The notes under the pieces: model-generated
The model's database searches: none
What the model saw: the letters and a program-made list of their open reading frames with translations, nothing else
Told to the model about the DNA's origin: nothing
Made by a program: the position numbers and the translations under genes
Virus record (IMG/VR): IMGVR_UViG_2541047837_000006
Coordinates: 1-14,084 of that record
Source of the DNA: a virus
Taxonomy: Duplodnaviria; Heunggongvirae; Uroviricota; Caudoviricetes
Length of the DNA stretch: 14,084 nt
Strand: one strand, 5' to 3'
Shown: positions 1,382 through 14,084 of the stretch, in pieces
Layout: every line of letters starts with the position of its first letter
Position numbering within the stretch: position 1 is the stretch's first letter

Positions 1382-3067
1382 GTGAATATAAACGTCGCCG
1401 AATTGTTAAATGGGAATTACATTCTGTTATTATTTGTGGTCCTCGCGCTTGGGCTATGTCTCGGAAAGTTACGACTTGGTTCGATCCAACTGGGTAATTC
1501 CATTGGCGTTTTAGTCGTATCGCTGTTATTAGGCCAACAACATTTCAGCATTAACACCGATGCGCTTAATCTTGGCTTTATGCTGTTTATTTTCTGCGTC
1601 GGGGTCGAAGCCGGACCGAACTTTTTTTCCATTTTTTTTCGCGATGGGAAAAATTACCTAATGTTAGCACTGGTGATGGTTGGCAGTGCGCTGGTGATCG
1701 CCTTAGGGTTAGGTAAGCTGTTTGGCTGGGATATTGGCCTGACGGCCGGTATGTTAGCAGGCTCTATGACGTCGACACCGGTTCTGGTCGGTGCTGGCGA
1801 TACACTGCGTCATTCCGGCATGGAAAGCAGGCAGCTCTCACTGGCACTGGATAATCTGAGCCTCGGGTATGCCTTAACCTATTTAATCGGTCTGGTGAGT
1901 TTGATTGTTGGTGCGCGTTACTTGCCGAAATTGCAGCATCAGGACTTACAGACCAGCGCCCAGCAAATCGCCCGCGAACGTGGCCTGGACACTGATGCCA
2001 ACCGTAAGGTTTATTTACCGGTGATCCGCGCCTATCGCGTCGGCCCGGAACTGGTGGCCTGGACCGACGGCAAAAATCTGCGTGAACTGGGTATTTATCG
2101 ACAAACCGGCTGCTACATTGAACGTATTCGACGTAACGGGATTCTGGCAAATCCAGACGGTGATGCCGTGCTACAAATGGGCGATGAAATAGCGTTGGTA
2201 GGCTATCCCGACGCCCATGCCCGACTCGATCCCAGCTTCCGTAACGGTAAAGAAGTTTTCGATCGTGACCTTCTCGACATGCGTATCGTCACTGAAGAAG
2301 TGGTCGTTAAAAACCATAACGCTGTAGGTAAACGTCTCGCACAACTGAAGTTGACCGATCACGGTTGCTTCCTTAACCGCGTCATTCGTAGCCAGATTGA
2401 GATGCCGATAGATGACAACGTCGTGCTTAACAAAGGTGACGTTTTACAAGTCAGCGGCGATGCCCGCCGCGTAAAAACCATCGCCGATCGCATCGGCTTT
2501 ATCTCGATTCACAGCCAGGTCACTGACCTGCTGGCATTCTGCGCCTTCTTTGTTATTGGGCTGATGATCGGGATGATCACCTTCCAGTTCAGCACATTCA
2601 GTTTCGGCATGGGGAACGCTGCCGGGTTGTTATTCGCCGGAATTATGCTGGGCTTTATGCGTGCTAACCACCCGACCTTCGGTTACATTCCGCAGGGTGC
2701 ATTAAGCATGGTGAAAGAGTTCGGCTTGATGGTGTTTATGGCAGGCGTTGGTCTGAGCGCCGGTAGCGGTATTAATAACGGCCTGGGCGCGATTGGCGGT
2801 CAGATGTTGATTGCCGGATTGATTGTCAGTCTGGTGCCCGTGGTTATCTGTTTCTTGTTCGGTGCTTATGTATTGCGAATGAACCGCGCGCTGTTGTTCG
2901 GCGCAATGATGGGCGCACGTACCTGCGCGCCGGCAATGGAGATCATCAGTGATACAGCTCGCAGTAACATCCCGGCGCTGGGCTATGCGGGCACCTATGC
3001 AATCGCCAACGTCCTGCTGACGCTGGCAGGGACAATCATCGTCATGGTATGGCCAGGATTAGGATAA
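1382..3067 (+). CDS. ybjL: Putative AAE-family transporter YbjL (membrane domains flanking cytoplasmic TrkA-C-like domains)
   Basis: 561-aa ORF with GTG start at 1382; hydrophobic N- and C-terminal blocks around a soluble central region; translation [20 protein letters not shown] matches YbjL. Confidence 0.88.
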
Positions 3068-3179
3068 AACTGAAGTTGCCCTGAAAATGAAATTTTTTTG
3101 CACAACCGCAGAACTTTTCCGCAGGGCATCAGTCTTAATTAGTGCCACTGCTTTTCTTTGATGTCCCCATTTTGTGGAG

Positions 3180-3222
3180 CCCATCAACCCCGCCATTTCG
3201 GTTCAAGGTTGATGGGTTTTTT
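3180..3222 (+). terminator. Rho-independent terminator downstream of ybjL
   Basis: Stem cccatcaacc (3180-3189) / ggttgatggg (3207-3216) followed by TTTTTT (3217-3222). Confidence 0.55.
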
Positions 3223-3302
3223 GTTGCCTGAAATTTATACCGTTTAAAATCATGATGTTAGAAGAACTGTTTTTTAACGATGGCGACAAAATGGCGGCAG
3301 CG

Positions 3303-3521
3303 TCAAAGAGAGAGCGCCACCTGCCCTGATTTCATTGGATGCGGCTGAACCGGATTTGACTCTTTTGGCGTTGCAATCGAACGAACAAAAGTTTCATGAG
3401 TAACAAAAGTATGGCTGCAGTTAATGTTCTGGCACTGGTTGTAACGCTCTTTGGTCAATGAAGATACCTGAAAACTGCTGCGAGTATGGGCGGCACTTCC
3501 ACACAGTGGGCAAATCATCAT
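3303..3521 (-). CDS. ogr: Ogr/Delta-family zinc-finger late transcription activator
   Basis: 72-aa product from ATG at 3521 (SD-like GGGGAGAA upstream); C-x2-C-x22-C-x4-C motif (CPLC ... CQNINC). The ORF is open to a GTG at 3554, so the start is uncertain. Confidence 0.85.
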   Translation of the reverse strand: MMICPLCGSAAHTRSSFQVSSLTKERYNQCQNINCSHTFVTHETFVRSIATPKESNPVQPHPMKSGQVALSL

Positions 3522-3611: not shown

Positions 3612-4880
3612 TCATTCCATTTCGAAATCATCAATCCTCACTTCAAGCTCCAGACTGGTCGTAAAACCATTATCCGGGCTGACGGTATGTGTCAGAGTCG
3701 TAATGGTCCATTCCGCATCATCTATCGGCTGTTTAAAGCCACTGACTTTCACTGGCATTTCCGTGTAGAGATCTGCCCGCCCTTCCGCCAGTTGTAGCGA
3801 GAATGACGCAACGCCGCGTTGCAGGCGTTCCCACTGCATTTTCGCCGCTCGTTCAGCGTTGCCCCGGTTGGCATAAGTACGATTAAGTACCAGCACGTTT
3901 TCATCCGTACCCACCAGGTAATCGCCCTGCTTCGCTTCCGGCTCTTTCTTCTGCTTTGCGGTCCTGCGCTTACGCTTCACCGTGGTGCTTTCTTTCTTCG
4001 CGGGTTCGCGGGTATGCAACCAGCTGGCAATTACGCCCGTGTAAGATCCGCGATCTGCCAGGGTAAAGCGGTGACTGTCGCCGTCCTTACGTGTGATAGT
4101 GATCACCGGCAGTGGTTTACCGCTGGCGCTTTTACCCTGTCCCTGCCGAATGAATAACAGATTGCCATTTTTCACCGACGCAATAGCACCGTACTGGCGC
4201 GCCAGCCGCATCAGAAAACTGCCGTCACTCTCATTAGTCTGGTCTATATGTTCCACGGGTTTATCTGACAGGTCTTTACCCAGTGCCATCTTCAGCTTGT
4301 GACGCGCGGCTATTTCCTTCACCACTTCCCCAACTGTGGTCTTGTGCCACGATTTTTCACGGCGGGTATTCAGCGTTTCCCGAAAATCAGCACTTCGCGC
4401 CCGGACACCGTCCACAATTTCCACCATGTTGATAAGGTCCACTTCGTAGAGCACCTCACCATTGATGGTCAGCTTCGCGTAGCTGTTGGTACTGGTCACT
4501 TTGGTGGTGTTGCTTTCGCCCGTCTTCCACTCGCCGGAATCCACTTCTTTGTGACGTCCACGCACCACAAGCTCCACGGCCTGCACTTCCCCGGTATCGT
4601 CACGCTGGATAGAGCCGGTAAAGCGCAGCTGGATGCCATCCACCGTAGCTTTGCCCATCTGCTTAAACAGCAGCAGCTCAGTACCGCCAATGGAAAATTC
4701 AGTATCCAGTGCGCCGTCATCCAGTCCCAGATCCACATCCACCGCCCCCGGCATACCGCCGCCGCGATACTTCTCATATTTGCGGGTGAATTTCGGCAGC
4801 GTCAGCGACTCTACGATCCCCTGCCAGTTGTTCCCGTCGTTAAACAGGTTCAGATGTTTTAATTTACGTGGTAAAGCCAT
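3612..4880 (-). CDS. Chimeric ORF: tail tube FII-like N-terminus (~155 aa) fused in frame to tail protein D-like C-terminus (~265 aa); probable deletion product
   Basis: N-terminus MALPRKLKHLNLFNDG resembles P2 FII tail tube; C-terminus resembles the gpD family and sits directly upstream of ogr as D does in P2. The genes expected between FII and D (E, E', T, U) are absent. Confidence 0.65.
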   Translation of the reverse strand: MALPRKLKHLNLFNDGNNWQGIVESLTLPKFTRKYEKYRGGGMPGAVDVDLGLDDGALDTEFSIGGTELLLFKQMGKATVDGIQLRFTGSIQRDDTGEVQAVELVVRGRHKEVDSGEWKTGESNTTKVTSTNSYAKLTINGEVLYEVDLINMVEIVDGVRARSADFRETLNTRREKSWHKTTVGEVVKEIAARHKLKMALGKDLSDKPVEHIDQTNESDGSFLMRLARQYGAIASVKNGNLLFIRQGQGKSASGKPLPVITITRKDGDSHRFTLADRGSYTGVIASWLHTREPAKKESTTVKRKRRTAKQKKEPEAKQGDYLVGTDENVLVLNRTYANRGNAERAAKMQWERLQRGVASFSLQLAEGRADLYTEMPVKVSGFKQPIDDAEWTITTLTHTVSPDNGFTTSLELEVRIDDFEME

Positions 4881-4889
4881 GTTGCCCCC

Positions 4890-6062
4890 TTACGCGCTTA
4901 CCTGGCTGGAGAAATTCACCAGGTACTGATCGGTGATGCGCTGACGCAGCATCAGGTTTTCAAGTGGCGGTACTGGCGTGTAGTCGTAATCGATGGTGAG
5001 TTTTCCGGCTTTCAGCGTGTCTTTATCGTTCACCGACTCGTCCAGCCAGCAATCACCACCAATGAGATAGCCCTGACTGACCAGGCTGCGCATTTTGGCG
5101 CGAATACCTTCGATAATGTCGCGGGCCAGCGACGGGTTCAGCGGTTTGTCCACCGCCCACATATGCGCTTCTGCCATCGTGTCCATCAGTACCTGCGCCG
5201 TGCGGGTGTAGTTTTCGAAGGCAAAGAGCGGGTCATCACTCAGGCAGCGGGAACCCCAGAAGCGGAAACCGTCTTTGCGGATAAGCGTGGTGACGTCGTT
5301 CTGGTTAAGCAGTCCCGCATCGGTTGCCGGGTCCTGCAGATCCCAGAACACATCAGCAGAAATTCCGGTGACACCGTTCACGCCTACGTTGGACAGGCTC
5401 TTGTGCCACCCGGTCTGCTCATCAATTTTGGCGCGCAGACCGAGCGCACGGGCGGTGGCATATGCCGTTGCTTCGGCATTCAGCACCGTGTCCCAGCCAG
5501 TAAAGTCAGGCCAGATCAGCATCCCTTCGCGCTGACTGAAGTTTTCACGGTAAGTGATCGCCTCCTGCACTGTCTTGCAGCCATACGCTGACAGGTAAGC
5601 AAACCCGCGCAGGCTTTGCGCCACACTCAGCAGCTCAGTCGCAACGGCTTTGTTATCGTGACCCGGCACGCCGAGAATGCGCGGTTTAACGCCGAGCTGT
5701 GACTGGGCAGATAACAGGGCTTTCATACCTGTTTTTTTACCCTCGGCGGTCACTGCGCCAATGATATTGGTTGTGGTTTCTTCTTCCGTTTCACCCTGCG
5801 GCACACGCACAACAACGGTCACGGGTTTTGCCTGGTCAGCGATGGCATCCAGCGAACGGGCCAGCGTGCCGGACTCACCCGCTTTACCGCTGGCAGTCAG
5901 CACATCAGTGATCAGCACGGGTTTATTAAGAGGAAACATTTTTGCATCGGCATCATCGCCCGTGCAGACCATGCCCACGATGGCGGTGCTCACCGTGGTA
6001 ATGGATCGGGTGCCTTCGTTGACTTCAACAACGCGCACTCCGTGGTGGTAATCCTGAGCCAT
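4890..6062 (-). CDS. FI: Contractile tail sheath protein FI
   Basis: 390-aa product; N-terminus [19 protein letters not shown] and C-terminal region [13 protein letters not shown] match P2 FI as I recall it; immediately upstream of the FII-like ORF. Confidence 0.9.
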
Positions 6063-6084: not shown

Positions 6085-6160
6085 AGGGGGTCTGCCTATG
6101 TTCTGGTTGATACGCGCAGGGTGCACGCGATGGGGATTGTATGGGAAATGGCACAACAGC
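6085..6160 (-). promoter_or_regulatory. Putative Ogr-dependent late promoter pF (dyad TGT-N12-ACA at 6138-6155)
   Basis: TGT (6138-6140), 12-nt spacer, ACA (6153-6155); dyad centre about 85 nt upstream of the FI ATG, consistent with a -55 activator site and ~30-nt leader. Confidence 0.5.
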
Positions 6161-6275
6161 GCCATGAGGGCTTTTCATAAAATAATCAATATATCTCAAT
6201 ATGTATTGATTATTATACGCAAATCTATTTTACTATTGCGCATCTGTCATCCATTTAAATCAGATTGAATACTAT

Positions 6276-7307
6276 ATGAAAAGAGATATTTCTTTAGACC
6301 TGTTACGTATTATTTGTTGTATTTTTGTAATAGGAATTCATGTCACGCCCGACTATGCTTATACTGTTACCAGTAACCAAACAGAAAGTATACAAATACA
6401 AACTCTTTTTGCACAATCAATTGTACGCATTGGTTTACCAATATTCTTTATGTTAAGTGGATACTACCTACTCAACAGACAAAATAGCACTCCACTTTTG
6501 TTTTATAAAAAAAGAATCCCCGCCATTATTATCCCTTTTGTAATATATTCATTAGCACATTACTATATTATTAGCTGGAATAATGGAACGTCATCGAATT
6601 TACTTGAATATTTCTCATTAATATCTAAAAGCACTATTTCACTCTCTGTGCATTTCTGGTTTGTTTATGCCTTTATCGGTTTGTATTTAACCGCTCCAGC
6701 AATTCAATACATAGTCAATAAAATCCCACAAGCCGACAGCCTTAAGGTGATTATAGTTTTGGCTTTCATTTTTTATTATTCATTATACTCATACTCTCTA
6801 AGCCAATCCTCTCAATACTACCATCATTTAATCCCATTACAGAGCATAGATACATGGGTTTTATATTTTGTTGTCGGCGGATTATTAAAAAGAGTTGACA
6901 TTAAAACACATTATATTGTATATAGCATCCCTTTTATATTTTTACTACATGTGATGTTTGTTTATTTTAGCGTTAACAAATATAACTTTAACATATACCC
7001 ATTTGACTCAGGGATTAATATGTTGTTAATGTGTTCCTTGATAGTAATTGCATTTACAAAAATAAACATCAATAATAAAAAAATAATTTTAATCATTGAA
7101 AAAATAGCACCTCTGACATACGGAATTTATTTAATTCATGTTTGTGTTTTCAGAGTCTTAGAGAAATATTTCAATATTCCTTTTATCGTGGACAACATTT
7201 TACTAAAAACAACATCCCTGTCTTTAGTCATTTTTTTTATCAGCCTTGGTTTAAGCTTGATTATTGATCGGTTGTTTGTTAATCCAATTCTCAGACTGAA
7301 TCGTTAA
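6276..7307 (+). CDS. Acyltransferase-3 family integral membrane protein (Oac/OafA-like acyltransferase); prophage cargo gene
   Basis: 343 aa, highly hydrophobic with multiple predicted TM segments; N-terminal LDLLRIICCIFVIGIHV resembles the family signature; strongly AT-rich; occupies the position of Z/fun in P2. Confidence 0.72.
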   Translation: MKRDISLDLLRIICCIFVIGIHVTPDYAYTVTSNQTESIQIQTLFAQSIVRIGLPIFFMLSGYYLLNRQNSTPLLFYKKRIPAIIIPFVIYSLAHYYIISWNNGTSSNLLEYFSLISKSTISLSVHFWFVYAFIGLYLTAPAIQYIVNKIPQADSLKVIIVLAFIFYYSLYSYSLSQSSQYYHHLIPLQSIDTWVLYFVVGGLLKRVDIKTHYIVYSIPFIFLLHVMFVYFSVNKYNFNIYPFDSGINMLLMCSLIVIAFTKININNKKIILIIEKIAPLTYGIYLIHVCVFRVLEKYFNIPFIVDNILLKTTSLSLVIFFISLGLSLIIDRLFVNPILRLNR

Positions 7308-7767
7308 ATGGCTTAGTCGGAAAGGCTGTATCAGAGGCTTTTGATGGATCAATAGCCTCTAATGCTTCAATATAATCAAGCCATATGTTATACATTTCCA
7401 GTTCAGTAGCATTCAGTCTCCCAAGCAATGCTTTCCCCTGCCATTGTTTGTTATTTATATAATTTACAGCTTCTATTATACGTGCTTGTTTTTCAGTTTT
7501 TGCTTTAGCCACTAACTCTGTATATGTGAGTGGTGGCGTATCAATCCATGCAGGCATACCATTATCATCTGCCCCAAGAATTTTTCCTTCCGGAGGTTGT
7601 TTCATGAATTCACAAGCAGTCTCATTTGAAATATCCACCCCTTCCTTAGGCCACATTCCATTTCTTTCATATTCATTTTTTAATATATACGCCATAAATC
7701 TGGCATTTACCTTATCCCATATGAAATCATAAGAAGAATCATGTTGATAATCATCACAACTTTTCAT
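7291..7767 (-). CDS. Tail fibre assembly chaperone (Tfa / gpG-like)
   Basis: 158-aa ORF starting 2 nt after the H stop; soluble protein with a C-terminal region resembling Tfa proteins; AT-rich like the 3' end of H. Confidence 0.6.
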   Translation of the reverse strand: MKSCDDYQHDSSYDFIWDKVNARFMAYILKNEYERNGMWPKEGVDISNETACEFMKQPPEGKILGADDNGMPAWIDTPPLTYTELVAKAKTEKQARIIEAVNYINNKQWQGKALLGRLNATELEMYNIWLDYIEALEAIDPSKASDTAFPTKPFNDSV

Positions 7768-7769
7768 AT

Positions 7770-9209
7770 TTAATATCCAAATGCAATAAATACAGCGCCT
7801 GAAACTTTTGAATCACTGCTGGTTCCTGATGTCAAACAAGTTACAGCAGTAAACCCATCATTATATATACTTTCGCACGACGTAACGACTTGTGCATATG
7901 TCATTTTTGTGACAAACACACCCCATACTCCGTTAGGGAATGGCGTTGGATATGTAATAGGAAGCTGTTGTGGAATACCAATAGTTGTACTATTAGGAAG
8001 ATTTCTTCGAAATATTTGTATAATTAAACCATTCGGACCTTTAACCAACAAATTATCGCTTCCTTTTCCTGTTAGCTGAAAATAGCTCATGTCAGGGATT
8101 TCATAACTATTAGCATTACCAACATTTCTACCTGCCGCATTTCCCAAATGCCCTAAACCAAGATAAGTAAGAATTCCTTCTATATCCTTTCCACTCAAAT
8201 TAGTCAGCGTATTATCCAGCGGTTGTTTGCCTGCCAGCGCATTAAGCATTGTCGTGGCAAAGTTCGGGTCATTCCCCAGCGCCGCCGCCAGTTCGTTCAG
8301 TGTATCCAGTGCCGCAGGTGCAGACCCCACCATTGCTGCAATTGCCGATTTCACAAAAGCTGTAGTGGCAATCTGTGTATTGTTGACCGACTGCGCCGCC
8401 GTGGGGGCTGTTGGCGTTCCGGTGAGTGCCGGACTCGACAACGGTGCTTTTAGTGCCAGCACATTGTTAATGGTGGTACTGAAATTCGGATCATTGTTAA
8501 TGGCTGCGGCTATTTCTTTCAGCGTGTCCAGCGTGGCTGGCGCACCATTAATAAGGGCCGTCAGTGCCGCCTGAACAAACGCAGTGGTCGCAACCTGCGT
8601 GGTATTATTCCCCGCCGCTGGCGTTGGCGCTTTGGGGGTTCCGGTAAACGTCGGACTTTCTTTGGGTGCATACTGTGAATGTGGGTCCTGTGCGGCAAGG
8701 TGTTTTGCCATCAGGTCATCCACATACACCTTCAGCTCCAGTACCTTGTCATCCACATACTTGCGGGTTGCCAGCACTACAGCAGGATCGATTTTCAGGG
8801 TGATATTTTCCGTGCTGCTGGTAATCAGCACCATGCGCACGGTCTGGGTGCGCCCGCTGCCTTCAGCCAGTTGCGGCTTATAGCTTTCCGGGCAGTTGCC
8901 CACGGCAATCAATGCCCCGGACTCATCAAACAGGCCCACTTCACGTATCCACCAACCTCCCTCGTTTTCAGGGATCACCTGTTCGGCAATAATCTGGCTG
9001 CTGTTCTGCGGGTCGATATAGAGCATATTCAGCGCAGCCCGGCGTTTCTCATTTACCAGTGCCGTCTGCTTTGCGTCCGGCGTTGGCAATGTTCCGCCGC
9101 CATCGCCGACCGCCATATGGGTAATTTTTAAAGGCACACCGAGCGCGGCGGCGCTGGCAAGTTTCGCCGCGCCAATATCCGTCAGCAGGGTATAAAATTT
9201 TGTGCTCAT
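7770..9209 (-). CDS. H: Tail fibre protein H with conserved N-terminus and divergent C-terminal receptor-binding region
   Basis: N-terminus MSTKFYTLLTDIGAAKLA ... MAVGDGGG ... ESYKPQLAEGSGR resembles P2 gpH; internal repeats contain the NELAAALGNDPNF motif; C-terminal ~160 aa unrelated and AT-rich. Confidence 0.85.
   Translation of the reverse strand: MSTKFYTLLTDIGAAKLASAAALGVPLKITHMAVGDGGGTLPTPDAKQTALVNEKRRAALNMLYIDPQNSSQIIAEQVIPENEGGWWIREVGLFDESGALIAVGNCPESYKPQLAEGSGRTQTVRMVLITSSTENITLKIDPAVVLATRKYVDDKVLELKVYVDDLMAKHLAAQDPHSQYAPKESPTFTGTPKAPTPAAGNNTTQVATTAFVQAALTALINGAPATLDTLKEIAAAINNDPNFSTTINNVLALKAPLSSPALTGTPTAPTAAQSVNNTQIATTAFVKSAIAAMVGSAPAALDTLNELAAALGNDPNFATTMLNALAGKQPLDNTLTNLSGKDIEGILTYLGLGHLGNAAGRNVGNANSYEIPDMSYFQLTGKGSDNLLVKGPNGLIIQIFRRNLPNSTTIGIPQQLPITYPTPFPNGVWGVFVTKMTYAQVVTSCESIYNDGFTAVTCLTSGTSSDSKVSGAVFIAFGY
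8230..8700. repeat. Diverged tandem duplication (~230 bp unit) inside tail fibre gene H
   Basis: Two protein-level repeats (ATTAFV...ALDTL.E.AAA...DPNF.TT) and corresponding DNA similarity, e.g. gttccggtgagtgccgg versus gttccggtaaacgtcgg; boundaries approximate. Confidence 0.55.
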
Positions 9210-9811
9210 GGATTCACTCTCATTGTGTCAATAACATGGACCGCCCCGCCTTCATGCGCGGTGCCGCCGGAAATAATTGTTTCGTTGATATACGGATAGA
9301 TCGTGATTTCTTCACCAAGATAGCTGGCGGCTCCCACCCAATGCGGGCCGCTGGTCTGCAGATTGATGGACATGCCGATCATGTGACGGCTACATGGTTT
9401 GGCATCGCTTATCAGCCGCTCAAGCTCCAGATAGGTATCTTCAGTGATGCCCTGGTCCTGCACACCAATGTCCAGGCGAAACGTACCCGGTGTTTCTCCG
9501 GTCTGCCACCACTCAATAATGCGGATCAGGAAGCCGAACGGCTCCACCACCCGCCGCACGGCACTGGTGGTTCCTTTATGCTGATGAATATAAAAAGCAT
9601 CCTTCACCACCTGTCGTTTGACGCTTTCCGTCCAGCCCTCGTCCCAGCGATCCACAGAGAACGCCCAGGCGAGATAAGGCAGGAAACTGATCGGACAGGT
9701 CGTTGGATTCCACAAGTCACGCAGCGGCACCTGCAGATCAGAAATCCCGCTGCAGGTTTGCGCCAGTCGGCGCTCCAGTGGCGTTGAACCCGGTGGCAGC
9801 AGACTATTCAT
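9206..9811 (-). CDS. I: Baseplate/tail protein I
   Basis: 201-aa product with the motif LRDLWNPTTCP ... LAWAFSVDRWDE ... GTFRLDIGV ... DAKPCSRHMIG resembling P2 gpI; start overlaps the preceding J' stop and its stop overlaps the H start. Confidence 0.8.
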   Translation of the reverse strand: MNSLLPPGSTPLERRLAQTCSGISDLQVPLRDLWNPTTCPISFLPYLAWAFSVDRWDEGWTESVKRQVVKDAFYIHQHKGTTSAVRRVVEPFGFLIRIIEWWQTGETPGTFRLDIGVQDQGITEDTYLELERLISDAKPCSRHMIGMSINLQTSGPHWVGAASYLGEEITIYPYINETIISGGTAHEGGAVHVIDTMRVNP

Positions 9812-10034
9812 CCGTTCCTCCGTTGGTTACGCTCCACTGCGTACATGATGCCGCCTGTGTTTTGTTCAGGACCACATCCGCCAGAGGAGAAGCCAGCTCC
9901 ACACGCTGCACACCCTCAACATGCAGGGCGGCAAAGATGGCGCTACGGCGAATATCCCGACCAAGACGCGTCTGACTGGCGATGTACTTCTGCAGGCTGG
10001 CTTTTGCCGCTGCCATTACCGGCTCTGCTTCCGG
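9804..10034 (-). pseudogene. J: Baseplate protein J, C-terminal ~70-aa fragment
   Basis: Translation AKASLQKYIASQTRLGRDIRRSAIFAALHVEGVQRVEL resembles the gpJ C-terminus; the frame is closed by a stop at 10035-10037, so the N-terminal ~230 aa are absent. Confidence 0.6.
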
Positions 10035-10375
10035 TCAGCGAACTTCGGGCTGACTTCCATAGAGGTGAATAATTTCTGGCCTTTTTTCACCAGTTCCACC
10101 AGGGACTCCGTTGGCTCAACGTCGGCATACAGCGCCATCTTGCCTGCCAGCGGACCTTCCGTGATTTCTTCAGCAAACAGCGCCGTCACCTTGCCGTAGC
10201 GGTTAAAGGTGCTGTCCGGCAGATAAGACTTGATGTGCTCAAGGTTAATCAGCGCGGTATACACCGCCGGGTTGTAGCTGGCTGCCATCTGTTCCAGCCA
10301 TTCTCGCTGGATTTCGCGTCCGTCGGTGGTGGCACCTTCCACCCCGATGCGAAAACGCTTTGCTTTCACTGTCAT
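10016..10375 (-). pseudogene. O: Capsid scaffold protein O, N-terminal ~110-aa fragment
   Basis: Translation FRIGVEGATTDGREIQ ... INLEHIK ... TSMEVSPKFA resembles the gpO N-terminus; ORF ends after 119 aa versus ~280 aa for intact O. Confidence 0.65.
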
Positions 10376-10399: not shown

Positions 10400-10475
10400 T
10401 TACTGGAGCCTTATGGTTGCGGTGATGGGGGCAGTGAAACAATGCGCGGTATTTGTACCGACAACCACACAAACC
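10400..10475 (-). promoter_or_regulatory. Putative Ogr-dependent late promoter pO (dyad TGT-N12-ACA at 10454-10471)
   Basis: TGT (10454-10456), 12-nt spacer, ACA (10469-10471); dyad centre ~87 nt upstream of the O' ATG, the same spacing as the FI dyad. Confidence 0.5.
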
Positions 10476-10517
10476 GCAGGCGGGGAAAGCCTTCATTCAA
10501 GGCTGTAGGTTTGTGCC

Positions 10518-11372
10518 ATGAACACCACACTGACACCCGCAGATCTCGATCCCCGTCGGCAGGCCATGCTGCTGTACTTTCAGGGATACCGCGTAGCCCG
10601 CATTGCTGAAATGCTGGGCGAGAAAGTTGCAACCGTTCACAGCTGGAAAAAACGCGACAAGTGGGGTGACTATGGGCCGCTGGATCAGATGCAGCTCACC
10701 ACCGCCGCACGCTACTGCCAGCTCATCATGAAGGAGCACAAAGAAGGGAAAGATTTCAAAGAGATTGACCTGCTGGCGCGCCAGTCTGAGCGCCACGCGC
10801 GGATCGGCAAGTTTAACAATGGCGGCAACGAATCCGACTTAAACCCTAACGTCGCCAACCGCAACAAAGGCCCACGCCGTCAGCCGGAAAAGAATGTTTT
10901 CACCGATGAGCAGATTGAGAAGCTGGAAGAAATCTTCCATTCCTCCATGTTCAACTACCAGCGCCACTGGTGGGAAGCCGGAAAAACCAACCGCATCCGC
11001 AACCTGCTGAAGTCACGCCAGATCGGCGCGACCTTTTACTTTGCCCGTGAAGCCCTGATTGACGCCCTGCTGACCGGACGTAACCAGATTTTCCTTTCCG
11101 CCAGCAAGGCACAGGCCCACGTCTTTAAGCAGTACATCATCGACTTCGCCAAAGAAGTGGAGGTGGAGTTGAAAGGCGATCCGATGGTGCTTCCTAACGG
11201 GGCCACGCTTTACTTCCTCGGCACCAATGCCCGCACTGCCCAGAGTTATCACGGCAACCTGTATCTGGATGAATATTTCTGGATACCGAAATTCCAGGAG
11301 CTGCGCAAAGTGGCTTCCGGTACCGCACCTGCAGCAACACGCCCGATCTCTGCGGTTGCACTCATGACGTAA
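10518..11372 (+). pseudogene. P: Terminase large subunit P, N-terminal ~268-aa fragment
   Basis: Translation ...[15 protein letters not shown] ... [12 protein letters not shown] ... [15 protein letters not shown] ... [15 protein letters not shown] resembles the gpP N-terminus; similarity ends near 11321 and the ORF stops at 11372 versus ~590 aa for intact P. Confidence 0.8.
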
Positions 11373-11662
11373 TGTGGCAGTTTCTCTTTTGCCACCTCAT
11401 TAATTGGTACGCATGGCAGGCAGTGAATCTGTGCCAGAAAACCATCTACCAACGTTGAATCTTCAGTCAGATCGGTAAGCAGCCAGATTTCTGGTGCGGT
11501 TAATAAATGAGGTTGAGCTGGGTTCAGCTTGTTCCGCAGAATCTGCACATTCATGCCCGCACGTTCTGCCAGTTGCACCAGATTGTGGCGCAGTGCGAAT
11601 GCACGACAGGCTTCATCAAAATGTGGATGTTTGGAAACTTGGTAATCAAACATGGTTTTCAA
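11249..11662 (-). pseudogene. 186 CII-like transcription activator, 3'-truncated; ORF tail runs antisense into the P fragment
   Basis: N-terminal ~105 aa with an HTH-like segment ([19 protein letters not shown]) and position downstream of the apl-like gene; the last ~30 codons are the antisense of P coding sequence. Confidence 0.5.
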
Positions 11663-11717: not shown

Positions 11718-11921
11718 TTAAGCAGACAAAGCATCAACAGTCAGAGCAGCCAGGTTAATCATTACCTTTTCACGTTTTTTGTCTTTACGAAGACGATGAC
11801 GAGGTAGTCGGCCATCAGCCAACATGTCGTTAATCGTATCAATAGAAAGGCCAGTCAGTTCGCTATAACGTTCGATTGTGACATGTGGTGTATTCAGAGT
11901 AATTGAAATGTTAGGTGTCAT
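11718..11921 (-). CDS. Apl/Cox-like small DNA-binding excisionase and switch regulator
   Basis: 67-aa basic ORF, first gene divergent from the repressor and followed by the CII-like gene, the arrangement of the 186 lytic operon; SD-like AAGGA upstream. Confidence 0.6.
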
Positions 11922-12066
11922 AAGGCAACATTCCTTCTAGATATGGCTTGTGGCGAGCCGTTGTTTGTCGTGATTAGTAGTGAAGGCTCCAAAAGAACAC
12001 TTCTGGTTCAACTTTAAGATCGCTTTTGGAATCTGTCAACGAATTTTGGATTTCTTTGGAGGACTT
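11922..12066. promoter_or_regulatory. Putative immunity switch region (lytic and lysogenic promoters with operators) between apl-like and cI-like genes
   Basis: Divergent gene starts; 8-bp perfect inverted repeat tccaaaag (11988-11995) / cttttgga (12023-12030). Promoter elements not individually resolved. Confidence 0.4.
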
Positions 12067-12636
12067 GTGGATTTCAATAGCGGCGGTAAGAAAGCCATAG
12101 AACGTTTAGTTGAAGCATATGGGTTCGGTACCCGTCAGGCTCTCTGTGATCATTTAGGTGTTTCTAAGAGCACCATGGCAACGCGCTATATGCGTGATAT
12201 TTTTCCAGCAGATTGGGTAATCCAGTGCGCCCTTGAAACGGGCACCTCGCTTAATTGGCTAACAACAGGGCATGGTTCAAAGCAAGCATCAGCAAATACA
12301 AATACTATAGAAGTAGAAAAATATTTATTGTCTGATGGAGCATTGCAGAAAGACGGTTTTTATATTTTTGATAAGGGATTTCTACCCTCTACGTTTAAAA
12401 AACCTTTTGTCATCACAGATAACAATTCTGAATTTATTTGTGATAAAGAATTTGATGATATACGTGATGGTAAATGGGTAATAAGTATTGATGGCGAAAT
12501 AACGATCCGTGACATTACTCGTTTACCCGGTGGAAGAATCTTCGTCGAGGGTGGAAACAGAGCCTTCGAATGCAAGATAGAAGACATTGAAATAATTGGT
12601 AAAATTATAAGTTTAACAGTCAAGCATGTTAAATAG
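12067..12636 (+). CDS. 186 CI-type immunity repressor (~189 aa)
   Basis: Divergent from apl and upstream of int; LVEAYGFG N-terminal region and overall length consistent with the 186 CI family. Start set at GTG 12067 (GGAGGA at 12058-12063); the ORF is open to a GTG at 11980, so the start is uncertain. Confidence 0.65.
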   Translation: MDFNSGGKKAIERLVEAYGFGTRQALCDHLGVSKSTMATRYMRDIFPADWVIQCALETGTSLNWLTTGHGSKQASANTNTIEVEKYLLSDGALQKDGFYIFDKGFLPSTFKKPFVITDNNSEFICDKEFDDIRDGKWVISIDGEITIRDITRLPGGRIFVEGGNRAFECKIEDIEIIGKIISLTVKHVK

Positions 12637-13031: not shown

Positions 13032-14084
13032 ATGGCAGTACGAAAACTCACCACAGGGAAATGGCTTTGCGAATGTTACCCCGCCGGACGTAGTGGGCGT
13101 CGTGTGCGTAAACAATTCGCCACCAAAGGCGAAGCTCTGGCTTTTGAGCGCCACACGATGGAAGAAACCGAAGCAAAGCCCTGGCTGGGTGAATCAGTGG
13201 ATCGTCGAACACTGAAAGACGTAGTTGAGCTATGGTTCAAACTACATGGTAAATCTCTGACAGCTGGGCAGCATGTCTATGACAAATTGCTGTTGATGGT
13301 TGACGCTCTGGGTAATCCTCTTGCAACCGATCTCACCTCTAAAATGTTTGCCCACTATCGAGATAAACGCCTGACAGGCGAGATCTACTTCAGCGAGAAA
13401 TGGAAGAAAGGAGCAAGCCCGGTCACCATTAACCTGGAGCAAAGCTATCTAAGTAGTGTTTTTAGCGAACTATCCCGTCTGGGCGAATGGTCGTATCCGA
13501 ACCCACTGGAGAACATGCGAAAATTCACCATCGCAGAAAAAGAGATGGCATGGCTTACCCATGAGCAGATTGTTGAATTGCTGGCTGATTGCAAACGTCA
13601 GGACCCAATTCTGGCACTGGTAGTTAAGATATGCTTAAGCACAGGCGCACGCTGGCGTGAAGCCGTAAATCTTACCCGCTCACAGGTGACCAAATACCGA
13701 ATTACCTTTGTCAGAACGGAGGGGAAGAAAAACAGAAGCATCCCTATCAGTAAAGAGCTTTACGAAGAGATCATGGCGCTTGATGGGTTCAATTTCTTTA
13801 CAGACTACTATTTTCAATTTTTATCCGTGATGGAAAAAACGTCTATCGTGCTCCCTCGCGGTCAACTCACACACGTTCTGCGCCATACGTTTGCGGCGCA
13901 CTTCATGATGTCGGGTGGAAACATTCTCGCCTTACAAAAAATTCTCGGACACCACGATATAAAAATGACTATGCGTTACGCACATCTGGCACCAGATCAT
14001 CTGGAAACGGCGCTCCGTTTCAATCCTCTGGCAACGCTGCCAAGTGGCGACAAAGTGGCGGCAGCGGTTGGCATTACCCCGTAA
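13032..14084 (+). CDS. int: Tyrosine recombinase (phage integrase)
   Basis: Catalytic signature present: R in LSTGARWREA, H-x-x-R in HVLRHTFAAH, Y in MTMRYAHL; N-terminal MAVRKLTTGKW typical of this integrase family. The ORF is open from 12876 but the extension is AT-rich and unlike integrase N-termini. Confidence 0.9.
   Translation: MAVRKLTTGKWLCECYPAGRSGRRVRKQFATKGEALAFERHTMEETEAKPWLGESVDRRTLKDVVELWFKLHGKSLTAGQHVYDKLLLMVDALGNPLATDLTSKMFAHYRDKRLTGEIYFSEKWKKGASPVTINLEQSYLSSVFSELSRLGEWSYPNPLENMRKFTIAEKEMAWLTHEQIVELLADCKRQDPILALVVKICLSTGARWREAVNLTRSQVTKYRITFVRTEGKKNRSIPISKELYEEIMALDGFNFFTDYYFQFLSVMEKTSIVLPRGQLTHVLRHTFAAHFMMSGGNILALQKILGHHDIKMTMRYAHLAPDHLETALRFNPLATLPSGDKVAAAVGITP

Follow-up and report, generated by a model that had tools for sequence, protein, structure and literature searches.

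Gene content of the prophage remnant

The window analysed in this work (the whole stretch of DNA, 14,084 nucleotides in length) was found by sequence comparison to be identical to positions 1311418-1325501 of the E. coli LR-64-2 chromosome (NZ_AP027595.1). It contains a defective P2-family (SopEPhi-like) prophage that is located between ybjL/rybB and rcdA, and its gene content is described below on the basis of RefSeq annotation, ORF listing, and Pfam, which agree. The left part of the element comprises, all on the minus strand, ogr (3303-3521), 'D (3612-4406), FII' (4404-4880), and FI (4890-6062), followed on the plus strand by a cargo gene for an acyltransferase (6276-7307). The ogr gene encodes a protein of 72 aa with a CX2CX22CX4C motif (Pfam Ogr_Delta, 5e-22) and is intact, so the element itself encodes a cognate Cys4 zinc-finger activator. 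The central block, also on the minus strand, is formed by tfa (7291-7767; tail fibre assembly protein, the G/tfa equivalent; Pfam Caudo_TAP, 7e-23), an intact tail fibre ORF, H (7770-9209; Pfam Phage_tail_fib, 2.1e-65, and Gp53-like_C), full-length I for tail protein I (9206-9811; Pfam Tail_P2_I, 3e-54, profile positions 1-138 of 139), which has its own GGAGG Shine-Dalgarno sequence, 'J (9804-10034), and O' (10034-10375). The 'J fragment corresponds to the C-terminal 76 codons of the baseplate protein gene, as indicated by annotation and by alignment with intact J, and O' to the N-terminal 114 codons of the capsid scaffold gene (Pfam Phage_GPO, 3.4e-55, profile positions 2-111 of 268; annotated as partial). 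On the other side of a 142-bp intergenic region lies P' (10518-11327, plus strand), the N-terminal 270 codons of the gene for the terminase ATPase subunit (Terminase_5 and Terminase_6N), followed by cII' (11321-11653) and an apl-like ORF (11718-11921) on the minus strand, and by the gene for an intact 186-type repressor, CI (12067-12636; Pfam), and int (13032-14084) on the plus strand. P' shares 62-63% identity with the P proteins of P2 and 186. Over the first 100 residues, identity to P of SopEPhi, which is classified as Felsduovirus, and to P of RE2010 is 99%.

At least three deletions are present in the element (FII'-'D, O'-'J, and P'-cII'). The genes for the tube, tape measure, and baseplate are missing, so the remnant is unable to build a tail; the replication and antirepressor regions are likewise deleted, and the gene for the immunity repressor CI has remained intact. 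The reading frame is preserved across the FII'-'D deletion, which has produced a 422-aa ORF (3612-4880, minus strand) in which an N-terminal segment of the tail tube protein is continued by a C-terminal segment of gpD. Just upstream of ogr there is a promoter-like site, TTTGCA-16-TATCAT, at 3586-3559. When a CI operator common to the ogr promoter and pR was sought by eye, nothing obvious was found.

Two features at the margins of the late genes were also observed. The gene for the RybB sRNA (3147-3225, plus strand; Rfam RF00110, 105 bits), which was the sole match in an Rfam scan of the whole window (with none in the P-O intergenic region), lies between ybjL and ogr and borders the prophage end, which suggests that the prophage integrated at or beside rybB. 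The acyltransferase gene occupies the position of Z/fun in P2 and converges on tfa with an overlap of 17 nt, so late transcripts running through tfa would enter the acyltransferase gene in the antisense direction; no terminator-like site was seen in this overlap.

A single dyad between the divergent P and O genes

The intergenic region between O' and P' contains the sequence TGTACCGACAACCACACA, a perfect match to TGT-N12-ACA, at 10454-10471. The centre of this dyad falls at 10462.5, 87.5 nt away from the first base of the O' ATG (10375, minus strand), which agrees with the earlier sequence-only reading of this DNA, in which an Ogr-type dyad had been noted at the same position about 87 nt upstream of O'. 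The TGT-N12-ACA pattern as such is not enriched, as the window contains six matches against 4.17 expected, and six or more were present in 47 of 200 shuffles; the matches at 749, 1404, 4829, and 10512 are probably due to chance. Because the pattern does not rise above chance, the identity of the dyad was argued from homology and conservation, with the features annotated in the GenBank records of P2 and 186, together with one published analysis (PMC3931495), as the reference basis. The latter provides a TGT-N12-ACA consensus model for the four late promoters (PMC3931495).

The P2 record (NC_001895) annotates one 'activator binding site; pO, pP promoters' at 3057-3087. The start of the P operon is at 3016 and that of the O operon at 3127, and the dyad TGGCTTATCACTGACACA (3063-3080) is centred 55.5 nt from each of them. 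Similarly, the record of phage 186 (NC_001317) annotates one B-protein site (3798-3817) for the activation of both pV and p12. In a four-way alignment the window dyad matches column for column with that of P2 and with TGGACAACCGCCCACACA of 186, and ACACAA is conserved; the ACA half is retained in P2, 186, SEN1, ST147-VIM1phi7.1, YenM06.16-2, and SEN5. The location is also shared with P2, as the dyad lies at the same position between divergent P and O genes in an element that encodes an Ogr-family activator. The distance between the dyad centre and the ATG of the O homologue is 87.5 nt in the window, SopEPhi, 186, SEN1, and ST147-VIM1phi7.1, and 95.5 nt in P2. The window nevertheless differs from both phages in several respects: the half-sites are TGG-N12-ACA in P2, and 186 also has a TGG half-site, whereas the window has the perfect TGT-N12-ACA; the intergenic region is 173 bp in P2 and 142 bp in the window; and the dyad centre is 78.5 nt from the ATG of P or its homologue in P2 and 186, compared with 55.5 nt in the window.

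Conservation was analysed in 80 related IMG/VR loci and the window, which together yielded 48 distinct intergenic sequences; these loci are close relatives (P identity of 91-100%), and wider diversity was represented by six individual phage records. Among the 48 distinct variants, none of the six half-site columns is variable, while 10 of the 12 spacer columns are, as are 67 of the 142 columns of the whole intergenic region. Invariant half-sites flanking a drifting spacer are the footprint that would be expected of a site bound by a protein with TGT-N12-ACA specificity. Of the 80 loci, 25 share the intergenic region of the window without a single difference. In 24 of these 25, the O ORF either measures at least 270 aa or extends as far as the locus end; the promoter region of the remnant is thus unmutated and not decayed. 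On the strength of this alignment and of the invariant half-sites, the dyad can be assigned with high confidence to the P2-family late-promoter activator sites of the Ogr/B/Delta type, as the sequence-only reading had also maintained.

In P2 and 186, binding of a zinc-finger activator to the dyad switches on the two late promoters, neither of which has a -35 element, and P2 genetics has established that late transcription needs this activator and the alpha subunit of RNA polymerase. By analogy with these two phages, the single dyad of the window is common to the promoter of O (P_O, minus strand) and the promoter of P (P_P, plus strand). The earlier assignment of the dyad to an O promoter therefore stands in that the site serves P_O, but the site is not O-specific, and its P_P side had been missed. 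A comparable arrangement is known from Smp131, a P2-like phage of Stenotrophomonas, in which PP' and PO' were assigned to the same 18 bases in two orientations (PMC3931495). Smp131 thus resembles the window in having a dyad common to both promoters and differs from it in its distant host and lineage and in the lack of any deletion context, and its assignment is itself a sequence prediction.

The geometry of the P2 and 186 promoters allowed putative core elements to be placed on both sides of the dyad. In P2, the -10-like hexamers are GAAACT (pO) and TAGCCT (pP), and the mapped start lies 6 nt later, with pP starting at a G. For P_O of the window (10404-10418, minus strand), the predicted -10-like hexamer is AACCAT (10418-10413), with a start near 10404-10409 (~10407) and a leader of ~30 nt that contains a GGAG Shine-Dalgarno sequence. 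The weakness of this hexamer is as expected for a promoter predicted to depend on an activator. For P_P (10506-10518, plus strand), P2 geometry places the -10-like hexamer TAGGTT at 10506-10511, followed after 6 nt by A10518. The distance from half-site to -10-like hexamer is 34 nt on both sides, the same as in P2 and 186.

A10518 is the A of the P start codon. Since P2-like spacing ends on the P ATG, the P' mRNA is predicted to be leaderless, unlike that of P2, in which the P leader is 23 nt long; the leader of the P homologue in 186 has the same length of 23 nt. Precedent for such a geometry exists in P2 itself, where pV starts at the first coding base of V (10308). Two members of other Peduoviridae genera, YenM06.16-2 and SEN5, have dyad-to-P-ATG distances of 56.5 and 55.5 nt, and in the window, SopEPhi, YenM06.16-2, and SEN5 the -10-like hexamer TAGGTT/TATGTT sits 6 nt before the P ATG. 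A leaderless terminase mRNA would thus be predicted for the SopEPhi-like lineage and for Duonihilunusvirus and Senquatrovirus. We regard this prediction, which is cheap to test, as the most useful by-product of the analysis.

Another TGT-N12-ACA sequence, TGTGCCATGAACACCACA, is present at 10512-10529 and overlaps the P start codon. Its TGK...ACA ends are kept in 47 of the 48 lineage variants, and the bases between them vary, a pattern that might be explained by constraint on the coding sequence, by chance, or by a further activator site. It was rejected as the main site for P_P and P_O, as it overlaps the start codon and neither P2 nor 186 has an equivalent.

The sequence-only reading had also described a first dyad, upstream of FI, and had given it the same spacing as the one upstream of O'. 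This dyad is in the P_F position and located at 6138-6155, with its centre 84.5 nt from the FI ATG (6062), so the two distances agree within 3 nt but are not exactly equal. The corresponding site of P2 pF is centred 83 nt from the FI ATG. Alignment of the P_F region with that of P2 gave no convincing match, the sequences being too diverged, and the FI dyad is therefore identified by its position.

Fusion of O' to the tail fibre genes

Three-way alignment with intact O and intact J placed the O'/'J deletion junction at 10035|10034 (10034-10036), with 2 bp of GA microhomology, and thereby bore out the proposal that the O-to-J interval has been lost. Beyond the junction the O' fusion ORF (10016-10375) continues for five further codons and terminates with a TAA at 10018-10016, and an in-frame ATG of J (10016-10014) overlaps this stop codon (TAATG). 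This overlap means that a 70-aa C-terminal fragment of J could be produced by termination-reinitiation.

In P2, the O-to-J interval contains the remaining head genes, the lysis genes, the attenuator and terminator of the O operon, pV with its activator site, and the V and W genes. According to the P2 record, V, W, J, I, H, and G form the V operon, which is transcribed from pV, and a separate terminator ends the O operon. By analogy, the deletion would have removed the terminator of the O operon as well as P_V, from which J-I-H-G would natively be transcribed. As pV lies within the lost interval, the fibre genes no longer have their native promoter, and among the late promoters on their strand P_O is the closest. 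P_O and P2 pV belong to the same class of Ogr-dependent promoters, and in the window P_O holds the place of the missing pV upstream of the fibre genes. Whereas P_O of P2 transcribes O through S up to a terminator, its counterpart in the window is fused to 'J-I-H-tfa.

O', 'J, I, H, and tfa are colinear, all on the minus strand, and no convincing terminator hairpin was found on this strand between 10400 and 7291, where only weak 5-bp hairpins are present. The late promoter is thus indeed positioned upstream of 'J-I-H-tfa on the same strand, as had been suggested. One weak minus-strand hairpin, at 7938-7921, is inside the 3' end of H. A scan for sigma-70-like promoters on the minus strand from 10400 to 7291 was also negative. 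The possibility that the leader, O', and 'J contain a structured RNA or a terminator was considered and rejected, as only weak hairpins are present and the predicted fold of the 621-nt RNA spanning these segments is no better than that of shuffled sequences (z = -1.3). The locus therefore has the structure of an operon fusion, with the native promoter and terminator lost (by analogy with P2), the genes on one strand, and no convincing new terminator.

Read-through from P_O into I-H-tfa is plausible on these grounds. Given the activator, we would rate the chance that transcripts extend into H as between roughly even and likely. If 'J is not translated, ~200 nt of untranslated RNA would precede I and could cause Rho-dependent polarity.

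Probable prophage decay and alternative explanations

Taken together, we consider it very likely that the locus represents a shared Ogr-family site in a prophage remnant, with P_O now leading into I-H-tfa, and that this juxtaposition is a by-product of decay. In the proposed mechanism, modelled on P2 and 186, a zinc-finger activator of the Ogr/B/Delta family would bind ~55 nt upstream of each start and recruit RNA polymerase to the divergent P_O and P_P promoters, which would be without a -35 element. An illegitimate deletion at the GA microhomology would have joined codon 114 of O to the final 76 codons of J, and the Ogr-dependent P_O transcript would continue through O'-'J into I, H, and tfa. 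The start-site positions, from the geometry of these two phages, the activator dependence, and the read-through are all inferred. The new arrangement most likely arose as a side effect of the continuing decay of the prophage and not as a selected circuit, and a selected biological role for the juxtaposition is improbable. The annotation of the locus is correct but ordinary, a conserved late-promoter activator site in a remnant whittled down by deletions. The element is of a known kind, and what is new is one further instance of it, with the deletion context a curiosity; it illustrates that a deletion can bring a block of orphan genes under another promoter from the same regulon.

A rival explanation, which we regard as probable, is that the locus is a neutral relic: the late promoter element is genuine, but it owes its position to accidental recent decay and has no role, with Ogr not made and H and tfa silent and being lost. 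The O'-'J junction is present in 1 of 5426 complete E. coli genomes, and the element bears multiple deletions and cannot form a tail, all in line with neutral decay. Further support comes from strain E423, which carries a sibling remnant at the same ybjL site with the same FII'-'D deletion; it is 100% identical over positions 6100-9298 of the window, and the accessions of its FI, acyltransferase, tfa, and H proteins are those of LR-64-2. As the FII'-'D fusion is common to both remnants, it is older than the other deletions. A different second deletion in E423, from I' to 'Q, has removed the whole P/O promoter region, yet H and tfa persist with 100% identity. The persistence of identical H-tfa in the absence of any late promoter argues for neutral decay and makes a selected role unlikely, but it does not speak against what the site is. 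In UR21/11-869, another deletion ('P to J) has likewise led to the loss of the promoter region. On the other hand, I, H, tfa, and ogr of the window are still intact ORFs, and loci in which the O gene is intact carry the very same promoter region. In addition, LP50-1 carries an independent O'-'J deletion with different end-points and retains an identical dyad, which could hint at a favoured outcome, for example the loss of the lysis genes.

A less well-supported alternative, which we judge unlikely, is that the tail fibre genes are mainly transcribed from elsewhere, by read-through from pR or from a cryptic internal promoter. The best promoter-like site on the minus strand, TTGACA-17-TAAAGT (12039-12011), precedes apl and cII', and the P'-cII' deletion has left little between it and O', namely antisense P' and a single weak hairpin of 5 bp (10460-10447). 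With this pR-like site upstream on the same strand and one weak hairpin between, the statement of the sequence-only reading that the late promoter could be the only promoter for the retained fibre genes is too strong. However, the intact CI would be expected to keep pR off in a lysogen, and the ~0.8 kb of antisense-P' RNA, being untranslated, would be prone to Rho termination. A cryptic internal promoter is disfavoured by the lack of sigma-70-like sites on the minus strand from 10400 to 7770.

Considerably less probable still is a functional reading, in which two deletions have created a bidirectional Ogr-responsive hub that controls I-H-tfa on the left and P' and possibly CI-int on the right. 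The hub would be trans-activated by Ogr, B, or Delta of a superinfecting P2-like phage or P4, with fibre donation and a boost of immunity as the consequences, and the O'-'J deletion of LP50-1 would then be a favoured outcome. If this were true, the donation of alternative tail fibres would amount to host-range mixing. The arrangement would matter only if the tail fibre genes of the remnant were trans-activated and used by superinfecting P2-like phages.

The least probable explanation, that the dyad is a functionless chance match or a site of P_P alone in this lineage, would fit the lack of enrichment of the pattern, the probably fortuitous nature of the four other matches, and the very good P_P fit of a centre lying exactly 55.5 nt from the P ATG, but it is at odds with the positional homology to two annotated shared sites (P2 and 186), with the invariant half-sites and variable spacer, and with the spacing of 87.5 nt to the O ATG, a value shared by 186, SEN1, and ST147-VIM1phi7.1, whose O-homologue promoter is served by this site.

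Several observations concern the course of decay in these prophages. E423, LP50-1, and UR21/11-869 have lost the block of head, lysis, and baseplate genes in different ways, and in each the tail fibre end (I/H/tfa or H/tfa) is kept. The I-H-tfa-acyltransferase cassette is also found as a 97.6% identical copy in CFT073 and other strains. On the right side of the window, the P'-cII' deletion (junction near 11322) has put P_P on the same strand as CI and int, so that late transcripts from P_P could run antisense through cII' and apl into the lysogeny genes; a terminator-like hairpin is present downstream of P_P on the plus strand at 11943-11961. Finally, IMGVR_UViG_2663762945_000001 (positions 2005-2117) carries a P' with 100% identity to that of the window and an identical end-point, at window position 11322. 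In that record ~111 extra bases precede the cII' segment and the O gene is not deleted, and it may represent an intermediate in the decay series.
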